A stretch of 41,060 nt of DNA from a virus (taxonomy: Duplodnaviria; Caudoviricetes). Made by a program: the position numbers and the translations under genes. Positions 26,770 through 39,263 of this stretch are shown here, one piece after another (the stretch's first letter is position 1; each line of letters opens with the position of its first letter). The DNA is taken from positions 1 to 41,060 of IMG/VR virus record IMGVR_UViG_3300033512_000027; one strand, given 5' to 3'. Under the pieces are notes generated by a model. It was not told the origin of the DNA and made no database searches. It worked only from the letters and a program-made list of their open reading frames with translations.

Positions 26770-27609
26770 ATGAAAGAACAAACACTATTAGTCTTAAAAG
26801 GACTACCAGCATCAGGTAAGTCTACCTATGCTAAAGAACTTGTTGCTAGGGGGTGGAAGAGAGTCAACAAGGATGATATACGAGCAATGATAGATAACTC
26901 TACCTGGAGCAAAGAGAATGAAACAGATGTTCAAAAAGTTGAAGTAGCAATAGCAGTTGGATTCTTAAATGCTGGTAAAAATGTTGTTGTTGATGATACT
27001 AATTTTGGATGGGAAGATAAATGGAAAGGAGTAGCAGAAAAGATGGGTATTAAATTTGAAGTAAAGTTTTTTGATGTCTCATTGATGGAATGTATAGAAA
27101 GAGATTCAAAGCGTGGTGATAAGTCAGTCGGTGCTAAAGTGATTCAAAGAATGCATGATAAGTTTTTGAAGCCACAGGAACCAGAATATTCAGATGATAA
27201 ACAAAACTGTTACATCTTTGATATTGATGGGACACTAGCATGGATGAACGGTAGAAGTCCTTATGATTATTATAAGGTACACACAGATATACCTAATCAT
27301 AATATCACAATGATAGCTAGATTACTTTCTCAATCTGGTTTACAAATCATTATCGTTTCAGGAAGAACTGATGATTGTGAAGAGGTTACATGTAAATGGT
27401 TAACTGATAACAGTATACCATACGACAGAATACACATGAGAAAGTTGGGTGATAAAAGAAATGATGCAGAAGTAAAGAAAGAAATATACGAAAAATATTT
27501 GAAACCAAACTATAATGTTCTAGCTGTATTTGATGACAGGAATCGTGTAGTTGATATGTGGAGAAGTCTTGGTCTGACTTGCCTACAAGTTTATTATGGT
27601 AATTTTTAA
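26770..27609 (+). CDS. pseT: polynucleotide 5'-kinase / 3'-phosphatase (T4 Pnk-like)
   Basis: P-loop GLPASGKST, VVVDDTN, HAD motif DIDGT, SGR and FDDR..VVDMWR. Confidence 0.93.
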   Translation: MKEQTLLVLKGLPASGKSTYAKELVARGWKRVNKDDIRAMIDNSTWSKENETDVQKVEVAIAVGFLNAGKNVVVDDTNFGWEDKWKGVAEKMGIKFEVKFFDVSLMECIERDSKRGDKSVGAKVIQRMHDKFLKPQEPEYSDDKQNCYIFDIDGTLAWMNGRSPYDYYKVHTDIPNHNITMIARLLSQSGLQIIIVSGRTDDCEEVTCKWLTDNSIPYDRIHMRKLGDKRNDAEVKKEIYEKYLKPNYNVLAVFDDRNRVVDMWRSLGLTCLQVYYGNF

Positions 27610-27612
27610 TTT

Positions 27613-28515
27613 ATGGAATTTAGAAAATACGAAAAGATACATAGGTTAGGTAAAGATGAAGTCGCAGGAATATTAGAAGGGACTTGTCATATTACTGAAA
27701 AGATAGATGGAGCTAATCTTTCTATCTGGATGAGTGGTGGTGTTATGCATGTTGGTTCACGTAATAATGACCTAACAAAGAAGAGAGATGAATTTAATGG
27801 TGCCTTACACTACTGTAACTCACACGAAGGAATAAGAAAGTTATTGACAGAACATCCCGAGTTTAGATTATATGGTGAATGGTTAGTGAAGCATACATTA
27901 TCTTATGATAATACATCATATAAGAAGTTCTACATGTTTGATATTTATTTAGAGGATTATGGATTCATGTCCCAGGAGGAAGTTCAGATATGGGGTGAAG
28001 ATTATAAAATTGATACAGTTCCAGATTTAGGAATCATTGAGAATCCAACACTAGAGCAATTAAATAAACTTATCGAAGGTAAGTCAGCTCTAGGAGACAG
28101 GATGGAAGGTGTAGTGATTCGTAATATGGAATTTAAGAATCAATTCGAAGATTTCTGTTATGCAAAATTAGTCAGAGAAGATTTTAAAGAAGACAACGGT
28201 GTAGTATTCGGAGGTAACAATAAATATGCTGACACTTATTGGGAAGTTTATGTGATGAATAAATACATAGATGTTGCAAGAGTATCAAAGATAATGAATA
28301 AGTTACAGCCTGAAGTGAATGAGAAGCTAGACATGAAACATATCCCTAGAGTCCTTGGAATGGTCTACCACGATGTTATTACAGAAGAAGCCTGGGAGAT
28401 AGCTAAGAAGGTTAAAACGATTGACTACGATGCCCTACAAAGGATTTGCTACAAAAAGATTAAGCAAGTATATGTCGATATACTTAATAATGATGTAAGC
28501 GTGGCAGATAAATAA
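27613..28515 (+). CDS. ATP-dependent RNA ligase (Rnl2-like)
   Basis: Motif I EKIDGAN, LYGEW, FDI, EGVVIR, AKLV; adjacent to Pnk. Confidence 0.88.
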   Translation: MEFRKYEKIHRLGKDEVAGILEGTCHITEKIDGANLSIWMSGGVMHVGSRNNDLTKKRDEFNGALHYCNSHEGIRKLLTEHPEFRLYGEWLVKHTLSYDNTSYKKFYMFDIYLEDYGFMSQEEVQIWGEDYKIDTVPDLGIIENPTLEQLNKLIEGKSALGDRMEGVVIRNMEFKNQFEDFCYAKLVREDFKEDNGVVFGGNNKYADTYWEVYVMNKYIDVARVSKIMNKLQPEVNEKLDMKHIPRVLGMVYHDVITEEAWEIAKKVKTIDYDALQRICYKKIKQVYVDILNNDVSVADK

Positions 28516-28871
28516 TGAAAACTTTTTGTAAAGTTTGTAAAAAAGAATTAAGTCATCCTTATAATTTTTATTGTCAAAAACATAAAATATTTACTGAACA
28601 ACATAAAAAAAATATGTCATTAGGTAAAACTAAAGATAAGGTTGGCTATAGAGCTATTCATTATTGGATAGAAAGAGAACTAGGTAAACCTACAAAATGC
28701 GAAGATTGTTTAATGGAATTTTCAGGACATAAGATTCATTGGGCAAATATAAGTGGAGAATACAAAAGAGATATAAAAGACTGGAAAAGATTATGTTCAA
28801 GTTGTCATGGTTATTTTGACAAGATAAGTCGTGAACATAAAAAATTATTAAGTAAAGAAAAACTACTTTGA
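28515..28871 (+). CDS. HNH endonuclease
   Basis: YRAIHYW...CEDC...HWANISGEY...LCSSCH. Confidence 0.8.
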   Translation: MKTFCKVCKKELSHPYNFYCQKHKIFTEQHKKNMSLGKTKDKVGYRAIHYWIERELGKPTKCEDCLMEFSGHKIHWANISGEYKRDIKDWKRLCSSCHGYFDKISREHKKLLSKEKLL

Positions 28872-35487: not shown

Positions 35488-36238
35488 ACCAGTTATCTGT
35501 ACAGGAGACATTGAAACATATCCATCAGAAGTATTAATGTATGGAAACACATGGGAACCTGTAATAGTAAAGATAATAAGATTCCAAAGTATACTGTCAT
35601 TTGCATATAAATTAGGAGATGGGAAAACAAAGTACATTGGATTAAATACGATGCCAGGTTATAAACCAGGAGACCTAGATGATAGACAATTAATGATAGA
35701 AATATCAAAGATATTAAATTCAGCAGATTACTTTTGTGGACAGAACTCAGATGAGTTTGATATTAAGATAATTAAGGAGAGAATTATGTTTCATAATCTA
35801 CCTCCATTAAGGGAAGATTTGGCTCTATTAGATACTAAGAAGTTATATAAAAAAGTATCTAGATTACCAAACAACAAACTTAACACTCAAAGTCAATTCA
35901 ATGGTTTTGGAGAAAAAGTAAAACATACAGGTACAGATTTATTTATAGATTGCGGTGCTGGTGATATGAAAGCTTGGAAAACAAACGAAGTATATAACAA
36001 GCATGACGTTGACCTAACTTACGCAAACTTGATGAAAGTTCTACCTTATGTTAAACTAAGTAATCCACAAAAAGTGTTTAGTACAAACGTAACTTGTGAT
36101 AATCCTTTGTGTTTATCTACACATTTAACTAAGTCTAAATTAAGAAAAGTTGCTGGTGGATGGAGACAACAGTTTCAATGTCAGGATTGCGGATGTTATA
36201 AAACACCCAAGGAAATTATTAAGACCCTTGACAAATAA
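35474..36238 (+). CDS. RNase H-fold DEDD 3'-5' exonuclease with C-terminal zinc ribbon
   Basis: DIET, QNSDEFD, YNKHDV, CDNPLC...CQDCG. Confidence 0.8.
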   Translation: MIQNKPVICTGDIETYPSEVLMYGNTWEPVIVKIIRFQSILSFAYKLGDGKTKYIGLNTMPGYKPGDLDDRQLMIEISKILNSADYFCGQNSDEFDIKIIKERIMFHNLPPLREDLALLDTKKLYKKVSRLPNNKLNTQSQFNGFGEKVKHTGTDLFIDCGAGDMKAWKTNEVYNKHDVDLTYANLMKVLPYVKLSNPQKVFSTNVTCDNPLCLSTHLTKSKLRKVAGGWRQQFQCQDCGCYKTPKEIIKTLDK

Positions 36239-36256
36239 ATAGTTTTATGTTATAAT
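36228..36256 (+). promoter_or_regulatory. promoter of the tRNA array
   Basis: TTGACA-17 bp-TATAAT with extended TG. Confidence 0.88.
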
Positions 36257-36296: not shown

Positions 36297-36371
36297 TTCG
36301 AAATCGTCTAACGGCAGGACAGCAGCCTTTGAAGCTGAGAATCGTGGGTTCGAATCCCTGTTTCGGAACCA
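36297..36371 (+). tRNA. tRNA-Gln(TTG)
   Basis: Cloverleaf, loop CTTTGAA, T-loop TTCGAAT, encoded CCA. Confidence 0.9.
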
Positions 36372-36434
36372 AGCTTGACAGCAAGTGTACATAACAGTTT
36401 CCACGTTAAGATTGCAAGCTGAAACGTGGTGGAT

Positions 36435-36505
36435 GCGAGATTAGTATAATGGCAGAACATCTCCCTTACATGGAGAATGCAGAGGTTCGATTCCTCTATC
36501 TTGCA
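36435..36505 (+). tRNA. tRNA-Val(TAC)
   Basis: TCTCC CTTACAT GGAGA arm; T-loop TTCGATT. Confidence 0.9.
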
Positions 36506-36509
36506 CAAT

Positions 36510-36580
36510 GCCCACATCATTCAACGGTAGGATAACTGGCTTTTAACCAGTCCATCGGGGTTCGATTCCCTGTGTCGGCA
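36510..36580 (+). tRNA. tRNA-Lys(TTT)
   Basis: ACTGG CTTTTAA CCAGT arm. Confidence 0.9.
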
Positions 36581-36584
36581 CAAT

Positions 36585-36661
36585 GGGATAGTGAAAGGTT
36601 CGATTTCAGGAAAAGCTAAAATGCAACCTGAAAGACGAGGGTTCGACTCCCTCCTGTTCCA
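36585..36661 (+). ncRNA. mini-tmRNA: tRNA-like domain of tmRNA without an mRNA-like domain
   Basis: G3-U70 acceptor stem GGGATAG/CTGTTCC + A; stemless D-loop ending GGTTCGA; helix TTTCAGG/CCTGAAA; GAC linker; T-arm GAGGG TTCGACT CCCTC. Confidence 0.8.
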
Positions 36662-36665
36662 CAAT

Positions 36666-36736
36666 GTCTTTGTAATTCAATGGTAGAATATCGAGCTCTT
36701 ACCTCGACCATCATAGTTCGAATCTATGCGGAGACA
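36666..36736 (+). tRNA. tRNA-Lys(CTT)
   Basis: TCGAG CTCTTAC CTCGA arm. Confidence 0.88.
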
Positions 36737-36749
36737 CAAGTAAGAATAT

Positions 36750-36821
36750 TGGAAGATAGTATAATGGTAATGCGTCAAGCTGTTAACTTGAACTATAGTG
36801 GTTCGAATCCACTTCTTCCAG
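36750..36821 (+). tRNA. tRNA-Asn(GTT)
   Basis: TCAAG CTGTTAA CTTGA arm; G discriminator. Confidence 0.9.
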
Positions 36822-36825
36822 CAAT

Positions 36826-36904
36826 GCTCCAGATACTCAATGGGTGAGTAGCGGTCTGTAAAACCGTGCCTTCGGGAAAGTTGGTTCGATTCCAACCTGT
36901 AGCA
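36826..36904 (+). tRNA. tRNA-Tyr(GTA)
   Basis: GCGGT CTGTAAA ACCGT arm; long variable arm. Confidence 0.9.
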
Positions 36905-36952
36905 CTAAGGGAATATCTAAGTTGTTGATTACGATGTATGGTATTCCCGCAT

Positions 36953-37024
36953 ACCGATATAGTTTAGTAGGAAAAACGCCTATTTTGTAAGTAGGTCAGC
37001 TGGGTTCAAATCCTGGTATCGGTA
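36953..37024 (+). tRNA. tRNA-Thr(TGT)
   Basis: CCTAT TTTGTAA GTAGG arm. Confidence 0.88.
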
Positions 37025-37028
37025 CAAT

Positions 37029-37099
37029 GGGCTTTTAGTTTAGTGGTAGAATATCTCCCTTGCACGGAGAAGACAAGATTTCGATTATCTTAAGGTCCA
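37029..37099 (+). tRNA. tRNA-Ala(TGC)
   Basis: TCTCC CTTGCAC GGAGA arm; G3-U70. Confidence 0.9.
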
Positions 37100-37103
37100 C
37101 AAT

Positions 37104-37171
37104 GGCGGGTGGAGTGGTCTCCAGGAAGGTCTCATAAGCCATCCTCACCAGTTCGATTCTGGTACCCGCTA
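37104..37171 (+). tRNA. tRNA-Met(CAT), atypical compact fold
   Basis: Loop CTCATAA; 68 nt; minimal D-arm; normal T-arm. Confidence 0.7.
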
Positions 37172-37211
37172 CACGAACTAACACTCCTTGGAAGTTAGTT
37201 CATAGGAGATT

Positions 37212-37282
37212 CAGGATAAAGCGTTATGGTTGCGTTCCCGACTTGGACTCGGGCGGTGTAGGTTCAATTCCTGCTATCCTGA
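37212..37282 (+). tRNA. tRNA-Pro(TGG)
   Basis: CCCGA CTTGGAC TCGGG arm; C1-G72. Confidence 0.9.
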
Positions 37283-37286
37283 CTAT

Positions 37287-37359
37287 TGGTTGTTAGTTTA
37301 ATGGATTAGAACATACCCCTACGAAGGGTAAGATGTAGGTTCGATTCCTACACGACCAA
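37287..37359 (+). tRNA. tRNA-Arg(ACG)
   Basis: TACCC CTACGAA GGGTA arm. Confidence 0.9.
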
Positions 37360-37364
37360 CAAGT

Positions 37365-37435
37365 GCTATGTTAGCCAAGAGGAAAGGCATCTTCCTGCAA
37401 AGTTGACATCATAGGTTCGATTCCTATACATAGCT
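37365..37435 (+). tRNA. tRNA-Cys(GCA)
   Basis: Loop CTGCAAA; U discriminator; two U-U pairs in the anticodon stem. Confidence 0.8.
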
Positions 37436-37439
37436 CATT

Positions 37440-37510
37440 GGGACCATAGTTTAATGGTAGAACATTCCGTTGTCTGCGGAATTGTCGGAGTTCGATTCTC
37501 CGTAGTCCCG
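37440..37510 (+). tRNA. tRNA-Asp(GTC)
   Basis: TTCCG TTGTCTG CGGAA arm; G discriminator. Confidence 0.88.
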
Positions 37511-37714
37511 CAAATGAAAAGAGATAAAAAAGTCTCGAAGTAGTTAATTTGAATGGATTGATTATCCACAGTCGCCTATAAGGTGTAACGCAATCAAATG
37601 AATCACAAGAACAAAAAAAACAAGAAGAAGAAAGTAAAAAGGATTTTAAAAATGTCTGGTTGGGGAAAAGGAGCCAATAGACAAAATAAGATTTATTATG
37701 GTTTCGATAAATAT

Positions 37715-37786
37715 GTGGATTTGGTGTAAGTAGCAGCACGTTCCCCCGTGAAGGGATTAGATTGGGTGCAAGTCCCTTAGTCCGCA
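37715..37786 (+). tRNA. tRNA-His(GTG), non-canonical
   Basis: Loop CCGTGAA; T-loop TGCAAGT; no G-1; A discriminator. Confidence 0.7.
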
Positions 37787-37790
37787 CAAT

Positions 37791-37864
37791 GTTTCATTAG
37801 CATAAAAGTAATGCACAGGATTGAAACCCCTGACAACGTGGAGCATTACCACGATGGAACACCA
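37791..37864 (+). tRNA. tRNA-Phe(GAA)
   Basis: Loop TTGAAAC; atypical T-loop AGCATTA; encoded CCA. Confidence 0.8.
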
Positions 37865-37899
37865 AGGAGTAGTTTAACCGCCTTTTACTACTCCTAACC

Positions 37900-37970
37900 A
37901 GGAGATTAGTTTAATGGCAGAATGACTGACTTATACCTAGCCGACAGAGGTTCGATTCCTCTATCTCCTA
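37900..37970 (+). tRNA. tRNA-Ile(TAT)
   Basis: Perfect acceptor and T stems; loop CTTATAC; weak anticodon stem with two A-C pairs. Confidence 0.7.
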
Positions 37971-37971
37971 C

Positions 37972-38045
37972 CCGCAATTAGTTTAATGGTAGAATAAGCG
38001 ACCGATACTCGCTTGATGGAAGTTCAATTCTTTCATTGCGGACCA
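37972..38045 (+). tRNA. tRNA-Ile(GAT)
   Basis: AGCGA CCGATAC TCGCT arm; encoded CCA. Confidence 0.85.
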
Positions 38046-38046
38046 T

Positions 38047-38117
38047 GACTGTATCGACTAGTGGTAGGTCGTCACCCTTTCAAGGTGGAGGTTCGGGGTC
38101 AGTACCCGATACGGTTA
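38047..38117 (+). tRNA. tRNA-Glu(TTC)
   Basis: TCACC CTTTCAA GGTGG arm; atypical T-loop GTCAGTA. Confidence 0.8.
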
Positions 38118-38121
38118 CTAT

Positions 38122-38193
38122 GGAGGGTTAGTACAACAGATAGTATAGGGTCGTTCTAAGGCTTTGATGAGGGTGCAACTCCTTCACCCTTCA
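38122..38193 (+). tRNA. tRNA-Arg(TCT)
   Basis: GGGTC GTTCTAA GGCTT arm; T-loop TGCAACT. Confidence 0.8.
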
Positions 38194-38197
38194 CAAT

Positions 38198-38268
38198 GCG
38201 AGATTGGTATATAGGTATTACAGGAGTTTTCCAAACTCTTAAAAAGGGTTCGAGTCCCTTATGTCGCA
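38198..38268 (+). tRNA. tRNA-Gly(TCC)
   Basis: GGAGT TTTCCAA ACTCT arm; A discriminator. Confidence 0.85.
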
Positions 38269-38272
38269 CATT

Positions 38273-38346
38273 CCGCTTATAGCCCAACTGGTAGAGGCAA
38301 TGGATTTAAACCCCATTAAGTGATAGTTCGAATCTATCTAGGCGGA
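38273..38346 (+). tRNA. tRNA-Leu(TAA), short variable region
   Basis: Loop TTTAAAC; Leu-type D-loop; 5-nt variable region. Confidence 0.85.
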
Positions 38347-38396
38347 CAAGGGTGCGTGAGAGCTATCTGAAATAGAGATGTGCGAACACCCACTTT

Positions 38397-38470
38397 CGGC
38401 TGGTAGCCCAACTGGTAGAGGCAATCGCCTCAAAAGCGATAAAGTGTGAGTTCGAATCTCACCTAGCCGA
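38397..38470 (+). tRNA. tRNA-Leu(CAA), short variable region
   Basis: ATCGC CTCAAAA GCGAT arm; 5-nt variable region. Confidence 0.88.
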
Positions 38471-38474
38471 CAAT

Positions 38475-38558
38475 GCGGATATGGGGAAATTGGTAGACCC
38501 GCTTGCCTTAGAAGCAAGTTCCCGAAAGGGAGTACAGGTTCGAGTCCTGTTATCCGCA
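38475..38558 (+). tRNA. tRNA-Leu(TAG)
   Basis: CTTGC CTTAGAA GCAAG arm; long variable arm TCCC GAAA GGGA. Confidence 0.92.
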
Positions 38559-38562
38559 CAAT

Positions 38563-38636
38563 GGGGAGATAGTGTAAATGGCAAACACGACAAGTTCCAA
38601 CCTTGTTAGTCTCGGTTCGAATCCGAGTCTCCGCCG
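38563..38636 (+). tRNA. tRNA-Trp(CCA)
   Basis: ACAAG TTCCAAC CTTGT arm; irregular top of the acceptor stem. Confidence 0.82.
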
Positions 38637-38640
38637 CAAT

Positions 38641-38724
38641 GGTAGTTTGCGTGAATGGCTATACGAGCAGTTTACTAAACTGTCAGGCGTAAAAGCCTTG
38701 TAGGTTCGAATCCTACAGCTACCG
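38641..38724 (+). tRNA. tRNA-Ser(ACT)
   Basis: GCAGT TTACTAA ACTGT arm; long variable arm AGGC GTAAAA GCCT; G discriminator. Confidence 0.85.
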
Positions 38725-38728
38725 CAAT

Positions 38729-38813
38729 GGATGGTTACAAAGGTAATGGTACCCCTCTCGTCTTGAAAACGGGTCCCGTAAAAGGGATGTTAGTTCGAGT
38801 CTAACACTATCCG
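38729..38813 (+). tRNA. tRNA-Ser(TGA)
   Basis: CTCGT CTTGAAA ACGGG arm; long variable arm; G discriminator. Confidence 0.88.
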
Positions 38814-38849
38814 CAAATAATTAGTTCTTTAAACTTTAATATTATAGTT

Positions 38850-39238: not shown

Positions 39239-39263
39239 AAAGTCTTCTTCGGAGGACTTTTTT
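39239..39263 (+). terminator. intrinsic terminator closing the tRNA operon
   Basis: AAAGTCTTC TTCG GAGGACTTT plus T tract; UUCG tetraloop. Confidence 0.85.

Follow-up and report, generated by a model that had tools for sequence, protein, structure and literature searches.

The closest described relative of the gene reported here is the tmRNA of mycobacteriophage DS6A, which is listed as 'TLD only' in PMC4131195. A DS6A-like molecule, whether chargeable or not, is reported there to inhibit E. coli tmRNA strongly, 'perhaps by titrating SmpB', and this inhibition is repeated in PMC11915505. The latter source also gives a curated database of 97,179 sequences, nine of which are classed as 'standard, no CDS', and describes organelle tmRNAs devoid of a CDS, these being mitochondrial and mostly permuted, along with two plastid genes of approximately 65 bp. 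In the openly searchable literature, the DS6A form appeared in two papers only and no family-level description of such mini-tmRNAs was found. Without any template, a tRNA-like domain combined with SmpB makes polyalanine in vitro (Shimizu and Ueda 2006, via PMC3929946 and PMC2481249), SmpB touches the tmRNA D-loop, and helix 2 passes between the ribosomal subunits at bridge B1a (PMC8363625).

The window, by which we mean the whole stretch of DNA analysed (41,060 nt), is a 41-kb phage record encoding terminase, major head and tail genes. A sequence-only reading had proposed that it harbours a 77-nt tmRNA tRNA-like domain without a message domain, possibly of a novel kind. The DS6A gene was mapped here to positions 28478-28557 of JN698994.1 (80 nt) and, because the two genes share the same loop motif and are both scored by one covariance model, the window gene is on sequence grounds a member of the DS6A 'TLD only' kind. 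Novelty of the kind thus falls away, since both the phage form and the idea of a decoy had already been published for DS6A (PMC4131195, PMC11915505). What was not found in print, in the literature searched, is the scale, with at least 119 distinct sequences against the nine curated ones, and the conserved loop; some of the sequences found here may be among those nine.

The gene occupies positions 36585..36661 on the plus strand (77 nt to the discriminator), as judged from its letters, fold and model scores, and the layout claimed for it was present in every part. The acceptor 5' strand (36585..36591), carrying the G3 of the alanine mark, pairs with the 3' strand at 7/7 positions (36585-36591/36654-36660) including G3·U70, which recurs in homologues, and the 3' strand with its discriminator (36654..36661) ends on A73 at 36661, CCA not being encoded. 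A stemless 12-nt D-loop of the tmRNA type (36592..36603) is a predicted SmpB contact, based on sequence, fold and PMC8363625. At the place of the message domain stands helix 2 with its distal loop (36604..36633), which has 7 bp (36604-36610/36627-36633), a fold z of -3.7 and covariation among homologues; its 16-nt loop (36611-36626) holds an A-run (36611-36614), followed by a 2-bp GC/GC stem (36615-36616/36623-36624) closing a 6-nt loop. A GAC connector (36634..36636), the predicted SmpB pocket, leads into a T-arm of 5 bp with a 7-nt loop (36637..36653), which is likewise backed by sequence, fold and covariation. The centroid fold coincided with the proposed structure (z -2.5), and 3/200 shuffles folded as well. 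The element has no pseudoknots and no conserved tag reading frame, and at 77 nt it falls short of the pseudoknot ring and approximately 300-400 nt of a standard tmRNA.

When the Rfam tmRNA model RF00023 was applied, a check that had been suggested at the outset, model positions 1-374 aligned to 36585-36664, spanning the element from end to end with the message domain deleted, at 41.3 bits (E 7e-17; cut-off 47 bits). The tRNA model RF00005 gave 27.4 bits with the D-arm and anticodon loop deleted, the D-stem and 7-nt anticodon loop of ordinary tRNAs being absent, so that a degenerate ordinary tRNA was not the better fit. The permuted tmRNA model RF04321 scored 12.3 bits (E 2.1), the gene order being standard and unpermuted. 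Because the tmRNA and tRNA scores both lie under cut-off, the element has gone unannotated; neither ARAGORN nor Rfam at its gathering score reports it. Scores of this kind, together with the lack of a near-identical copy elsewhere and of the element in related phages, would also fit an assembly collapse, a full tmRNA that has recently suffered a deletion, or an ordinary tRNA in decay. Such an origin is nonetheless very improbable, given that the element has the loop geometry of a family (below), which recurs at 65 bits in a locus on an unrelated contig (L425), that its helix-2 letters occur in 0/25 viral stretches sharing its 3' acceptor, that searches for a full-length sister gene found none, and that its identity to the tRNA-Ala of the surrounding array is 55%. 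A 152-nt contig is identical to 36589-36740, but it may originate from the source sample itself and reaches only 22 letters beyond the loop on the left. No record covering 80% of the element was retrieved in blastn searches of cultured phages.

Viral sequences were scanned with two patterns. The first, with the 3' end fixed, gave at least 120 viral loci (approximately 610 matching stretches estimated), and the full anatomy was seen in 62 of the 104 distinct rows, the window's own among them, the remaining rows being tmRNA 3' ends or chance matches. The second pattern left the acceptor free and again gave at least 120 loci (approximately 400 matching stretches estimated), with an acceptor stem in 96 of the 97 distinct sequences among the matches listed. 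Within these 96 unbiased matches listed, G3·U70 was present in 94, both exceptions resembling one-base register shifts, and A73 in 95, with pairs 4-6 varying; 93 were 75-81 nt long and 22 encoded CCA. The D-loop end, the GAC connector and the T-loop were fixed by the patterns, hence their frequency in homologues is no sign of conservation. The pooled scans, with a filter that required G3, yielded at least 119 distinct sequences, which formed 99 clusters at 90% identity and 77 at 80%. Only 2/118 of the minis overlapped an ARAGORN call. The window's own D-loop ending, used as a pattern, retrieved 22 loci, only two of which were minis, the others being mostly chance matches among tRNAs.

A covariance model (R1) was built from 16 gapless members, with the window and DS6A both left out, and found 95 matches in 100 chosen sources. 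It scored the window gene at 54.8 bits and the DS6A gene at 60.7 bits, and none of the window's ordinary tRNAs; among 50 carrier records, RF00023 scored above its cut-off in 45. In the alignment, which was fitted to the model, 96.8% of cells were paired (shuffles 65.4%, slid controls 38-53%), pairing as high was reached in 0/500 shuffles, and two-sided changes were seen in 20/23 pairs. The T-arm was 100% paired with covariation in all five pairs. The covarying homologues that had been called for were accordingly found, and the structure of the family appears, on an alignment fitted to the model, to be under purifying selection.

The distal loop of the family carries a conserved A-run and a short stem, the first pair of which was C-G in 76 and G-C, the window type, in 4 of 94 members. 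The window copy is divergent, with at most 69% identity to any other member and a small stem of only 2 bp. For comparison, 61 full tmRNAs were taken from 72 distinct calls at the loci found: an A-run was present at helix positions 7-15 in 97/119 minis and 37/61 full tmRNAs (29/61 full tmRNAs in the next interval of positions), and a loop motif similar to that of the minis stood at the same place in 6/61 full tmRNAs, against a weak control. The motif may have descended from the internal loop of the full-tmRNA helix 2, although this is suggestive only.

The same loop had been read as holding a vestigial GCA-ACC-TGA frame. The letters are there, and since natural two-residue tags exist (PMC11915505) the element might be a short-circuited tmRNA whose loop encodes a tiny tag. 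However, the GC belongs to the 3' strand of the conserved small stem and, when 107 of the 119 members were anchored on that stem, no stop preceded the 3' end in 77, 90 and 84 of them in the three frames, and the first codons of the putative frame varied between members. The resume codon of the 61 full tmRNAs begins with G (61/61), with A at -4 (61/61) and a pyrimidine at -5 (60/61); in the frame proposed for the window, -5 is A, and the U85A mutation impairs tmRNA frame choice (PMC2481249). The element thus lacks the resume signal and stop-terminated tag frame of a standard tmRNA, and the tiny-tag reading, on these comparisons a highly improbable one, is largely refuted.

The window gene is embedded in a tRNA array (36297..38815, +; 23 ARAGORN calls, two more from Rfam and one further Ser-like gene) of at least 25 tRNA genes. 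It is separated from tRNA-Lys(TTT) and tRNA-Lys(CTT) by CAAT spacers at 36581..36584 and 36662..36665 (+), the same linker as in 10 of the 25 spacers listed. This agrees with the linkers first noted, and the position fits tRNA-like processing; a normal tRNA-Ala(TGC) is indeed encoded separately at 37029-37100. At the array head lies a predicted sigma-70-type promoter (36228..36256, +), a 12/12 match and the only perfect one in a search whose total of seven sites was not above chance (6.7 in shuffles), and a terminator-like hairpin is predicted downstream (39239..39260, +). The further tRNA-Ser(TGA)-like gene (38729-38815, +) has a long variable arm and was missed by ARAGORN and at the Rfam gathering score. 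Unusual anticodons were seen in Ser(ACT) (38641-38724) and Ile(TAT) (37900-37970), and small hairpins lie between tRNA genes at 36369-36434, 37172-37211 (two alternative stems, which could form a pseudoknot), 37862-37899 (z -4.3) and 38347-38396. Elsewhere in the window, adjacent polynucleotide kinase and RNA ligase genes (26770-28515, +) are likely a tRNA-repair pair.

The window's terminase has a 74% homologue whose name points to a Woesebacteria assembly, which hints weakly that the phage may infect Patescibacteria. SmpB was present in 58/61 genomes of the hinted phylum, and R1 matched one of 151 of its genomes, with only 31 candidates scored per genome. Judged by its exonuclease (80%), the closest relative is missing the array altogether; at the array's place, behind the promoter, it has one degenerate tRNA-like stretch (L393, approximately 925-1010). 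The mini-tmRNA was absent from 5/5 related phage records (35-100% complete) and, as these relatives are without the mini or the entire array, it is evidently accessory, or dispensable, in this lineage.

The array also contains a conserved 43-aa basic ORF (37598-37729, +), whose stop codon lies inside tRNA-His, which starts at 37715. Processing of that tRNA would leave the peptide mRNA stop-less, and production of a stop-less mRNA by processing is the logic of ArfA regulation. Ten database proteins resemble the peptide (six, plus four of five short ones, in sets that may overlap). At the DNA level, two near-identical loci (L428 and L429) likewise have the ORF running into tRNA-His, with synonymous changes in its core motif; in most of the others the C-termini only look like translated tRNA. 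An ArfA-like identity was set aside, the peptide having no match in Pfam, NCBIfam or PDB. An obligate coupling of mini and peptide was likewise not supported, with the peptide in 0/50 records (48 mini carriers and two related phages) in a search run without a positive control, and no mini was seen in two partial relatives that have the peptide.

Placement in a tRNA array holds for the window gene but is not typical of the family: among 63 members with long flanks, 49 had no tRNA in the locus and nine were in arrays. A survey of 92/153 neighbouring ORFs, from loci that are not independent, placed the major head gene directly downstream of the mini in eight loci and upstream in one, with terminase or portal genes flanking four, and otherwise found mixed neighbours with no conserved protein partner. 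Loci with the mini directly upstream of the major head gene are L125, L135, L142, L165, L176, L180, L187, L189 and L266. This placement, which phiPsal1 also has, suggests late and strong expression. Among cultured phages the element was checked in Streptomyces phages LuckySocke (host S. lividans) and BRock and in Pontimonas phage phiPsal1, and was matched by blastn only in GiJojo and pSt2308; four of the five have no annotated feature over the match and GiJojo has a hypothetical protein.

No smpB gene was found in the 50 carrier records or in the window. Two of the 50 records also encode a full-length tmRNA (G003, with L011 and L395; G005, with L022 and L396), one with an odd tag call. In a scan of cellular genomes, 67 of the 120 loci among the matches listed had an ARAGORN tmRNA call, being mostly full-tmRNA 3' ends, and 19 rows passed a loose filter, approximately 12 of which look like minis. 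A full tmRNA was present alongside the mini in 8 of the 11 mini-bearing cellular assemblies, so the mini is an extra and not a replacement. Two separate mini copies were present in one phage contig (L170 and L199) and in one cellular assembly (G053). Mini-like genes also occurred on contigs binned as archaeal (L326 and L332; Woesearchaeota and Nitrosotalea), and L332, which has the sequence of viral locus L235, is likely misbinned phage DNA.

Several other short or unannotated elements came to light. In a 0.5-Mb Saccharibacteria assembly, in which no full tmRNA was found, a 70-nt tag-less form (L339:2987-3056; G058:C12:3324-3393) lies approximately 580 nt from smpB, and short forms of 71-139 nt occur in 4/25 relatives (G220, G234, G225 and G235), in three cases together with a full tmRNA. 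Microbacterium phage Dismas and relatives encode an unannotated RNA-like element of approximately 90 nt (L267, approximately 1437-1527) with a G3·U70 acceptor, a T-arm and a non-standard middle; the query is covered to 80% by 26 records, and R1 does not match the element. Large phage contigs hold a 61-nt element made up of a G3·U70 acceptor and a T-arm (L401:1468-1528), shorter than the mini family, and Salinibacter phage SRUTV-1 (L268) has an unannotated 374-nt full-length tmRNA called by ARAGORN.

The mini gene is, by its sequence and conservation, real and likely functional. The reading that we favour, at a probability of roughly 0.55, is that it acts as a tag-less, alanine-charged competitor of host tmRNA on stalled ribosomes, a role predicted from sequence and literature. 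The RNA would be transcribed with the tRNA array, excised like a tRNA and given its CCA by the host. RNase P and the CCA-adding enzyme carry out such processing. Host alanyl-tRNA synthetase would then charge it by way of G3·U70 and A73, after which it would bind host SmpB and EF-Tu and enter ribosomes stuck on stop-less mRNA. There it would take over the nascent chain and add alanine but, having no message, no degradation tag, and would at the same time withdraw SmpB and stalled ribosomes from host tmRNA. The chain would be released by another route, or would receive more alanines from further copies, and the phage would probably benefit in that the products of cut or stop-less mRNA go untagged. 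The near-invariant alanine mark, the conserved family structure and the lack of a phage SmpB support this competitor role, as do the tmRNA inhibition reported for the DS6A-like form, the polyalanine synthesis in vitro, the presence of SmpB in most genomes of the hinted phylum and the full tmRNA found beside the mini in most cellular assemblies. Against it, a full-length tmRNA in 2/50 carrier records would be unexpected if the mini were purely inhibitory, a complex that is never released might harm the phage's own translation, and the window copy is divergent and dispensable in its lineage, its host being only hinted at.

The two functions initially proposed, a decoy and a tag-less rescue RNA, are both live readings. 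A pure sponge for SmpB and EF-Tu that never takes part in peptidyl transfer would suit a phage that encodes no SmpB, and because the DS6A-like molecule inhibits with or without chargeability, by titration of SmpB perhaps, blocking does not need alanine (PMC4131195). We consider such a sponge unlikely: it would need neither G3·U70 and A73, present in 94-95/96 members, nor the tight length of 75-81 nt and the conserved distal loop, although charging might serve stability or EF-Tu binding. With helix 2 passing through bridge B1a, a fixed helix length would presumably matter only if the RNA enters the ribosome, and pure blocking is argued against by the two phages that carry a full tmRNA as well.

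Those two phages sit more easily with a helpful activity beside host tmRNA, in which the damaged mRNA is ejected, one or more alanines are added and recycling of ribosomes is sped up during infection. In its widest form this would be template-free alanine tailing on whole ribosomes, with the charged mini and host SmpB re-entering repeatedly and writing polyalanine where the SsrA tag would otherwise stand; the basic peptide of the same operon might supply a substrate from within the phage itself. Short alanine tails could in their turn mark proteins for degradation, as they do for ClpXP in B. subtilis (PMC8012679). The near-invariant alanine mark, polyalanine synthesis in vitro, the persistence of tag-less tmRNAs with SmpB in organelles (PMC11915505) and the Saccharibacteria form near smpB all point this way. 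We hold both rescue and widespread tailing to be tentative and rather doubtful, inhibition being the only in vivo result reported in the available text of PMC4131195 and PMC11915505; moreover, no release factor partner appeared among the neighbouring ORFs scanned, and the Saccharibacteria case is one assembly that could be a misassembly.

If the minis are functional, it is routine for phages to adjust ribosome rescue by means of an RNA the size of a tRNA, and if alanine tailing is true, phages would decide what becomes of the proteins that cut mRNA yields, and some cells may use the tailing too. The near-invariant alanine mark allows a sharp test between sponge and alanine donor, a question that bears also on the role of tag-less organelle tmRNAs. 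The window copy contributes a divergent subtype, located in the tRNA array of a phage for which Patescibacteria are weakly hinted as hosts.

Compared with known systems, alanine tailing by RqcH/RqcP may have an identical product, a C-terminal alanine tail, but is protein-guided, uses ordinary tRNA-Ala and split 50S subunits, and has no homology to the mini (PMC8012679). The CDS-less organelle tmRNAs share a tRNA-like domain without a tag frame, yet each is its organelle's only tmRNA and has a dedicated SmpB, whereas the phage form is an extra beside host tmRNA (PMC11915505). Standard tmRNA (RF00023) has in common with the window gene the tRNA-like domain in full and the first part of helix 2, the window gene being approximately 280 nt shorter and without pseudoknots, resume signal or tag frame. 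The DS6A gene differs in sequence (56% identity), in its small stem (CC/GG against GC/GC, the latter in 4/94 members), in its connector (CAC against GAC), in its intergenic location as opposed to a tRNA array and likely in host phylum. It nevertheless has the same standard order and almost the same length (80 against 77 nt), the same G3·U70, A73 and stemless D-loop, no tag, and a helix 2 capped in the same manner by an A-run and a small stem-loop.
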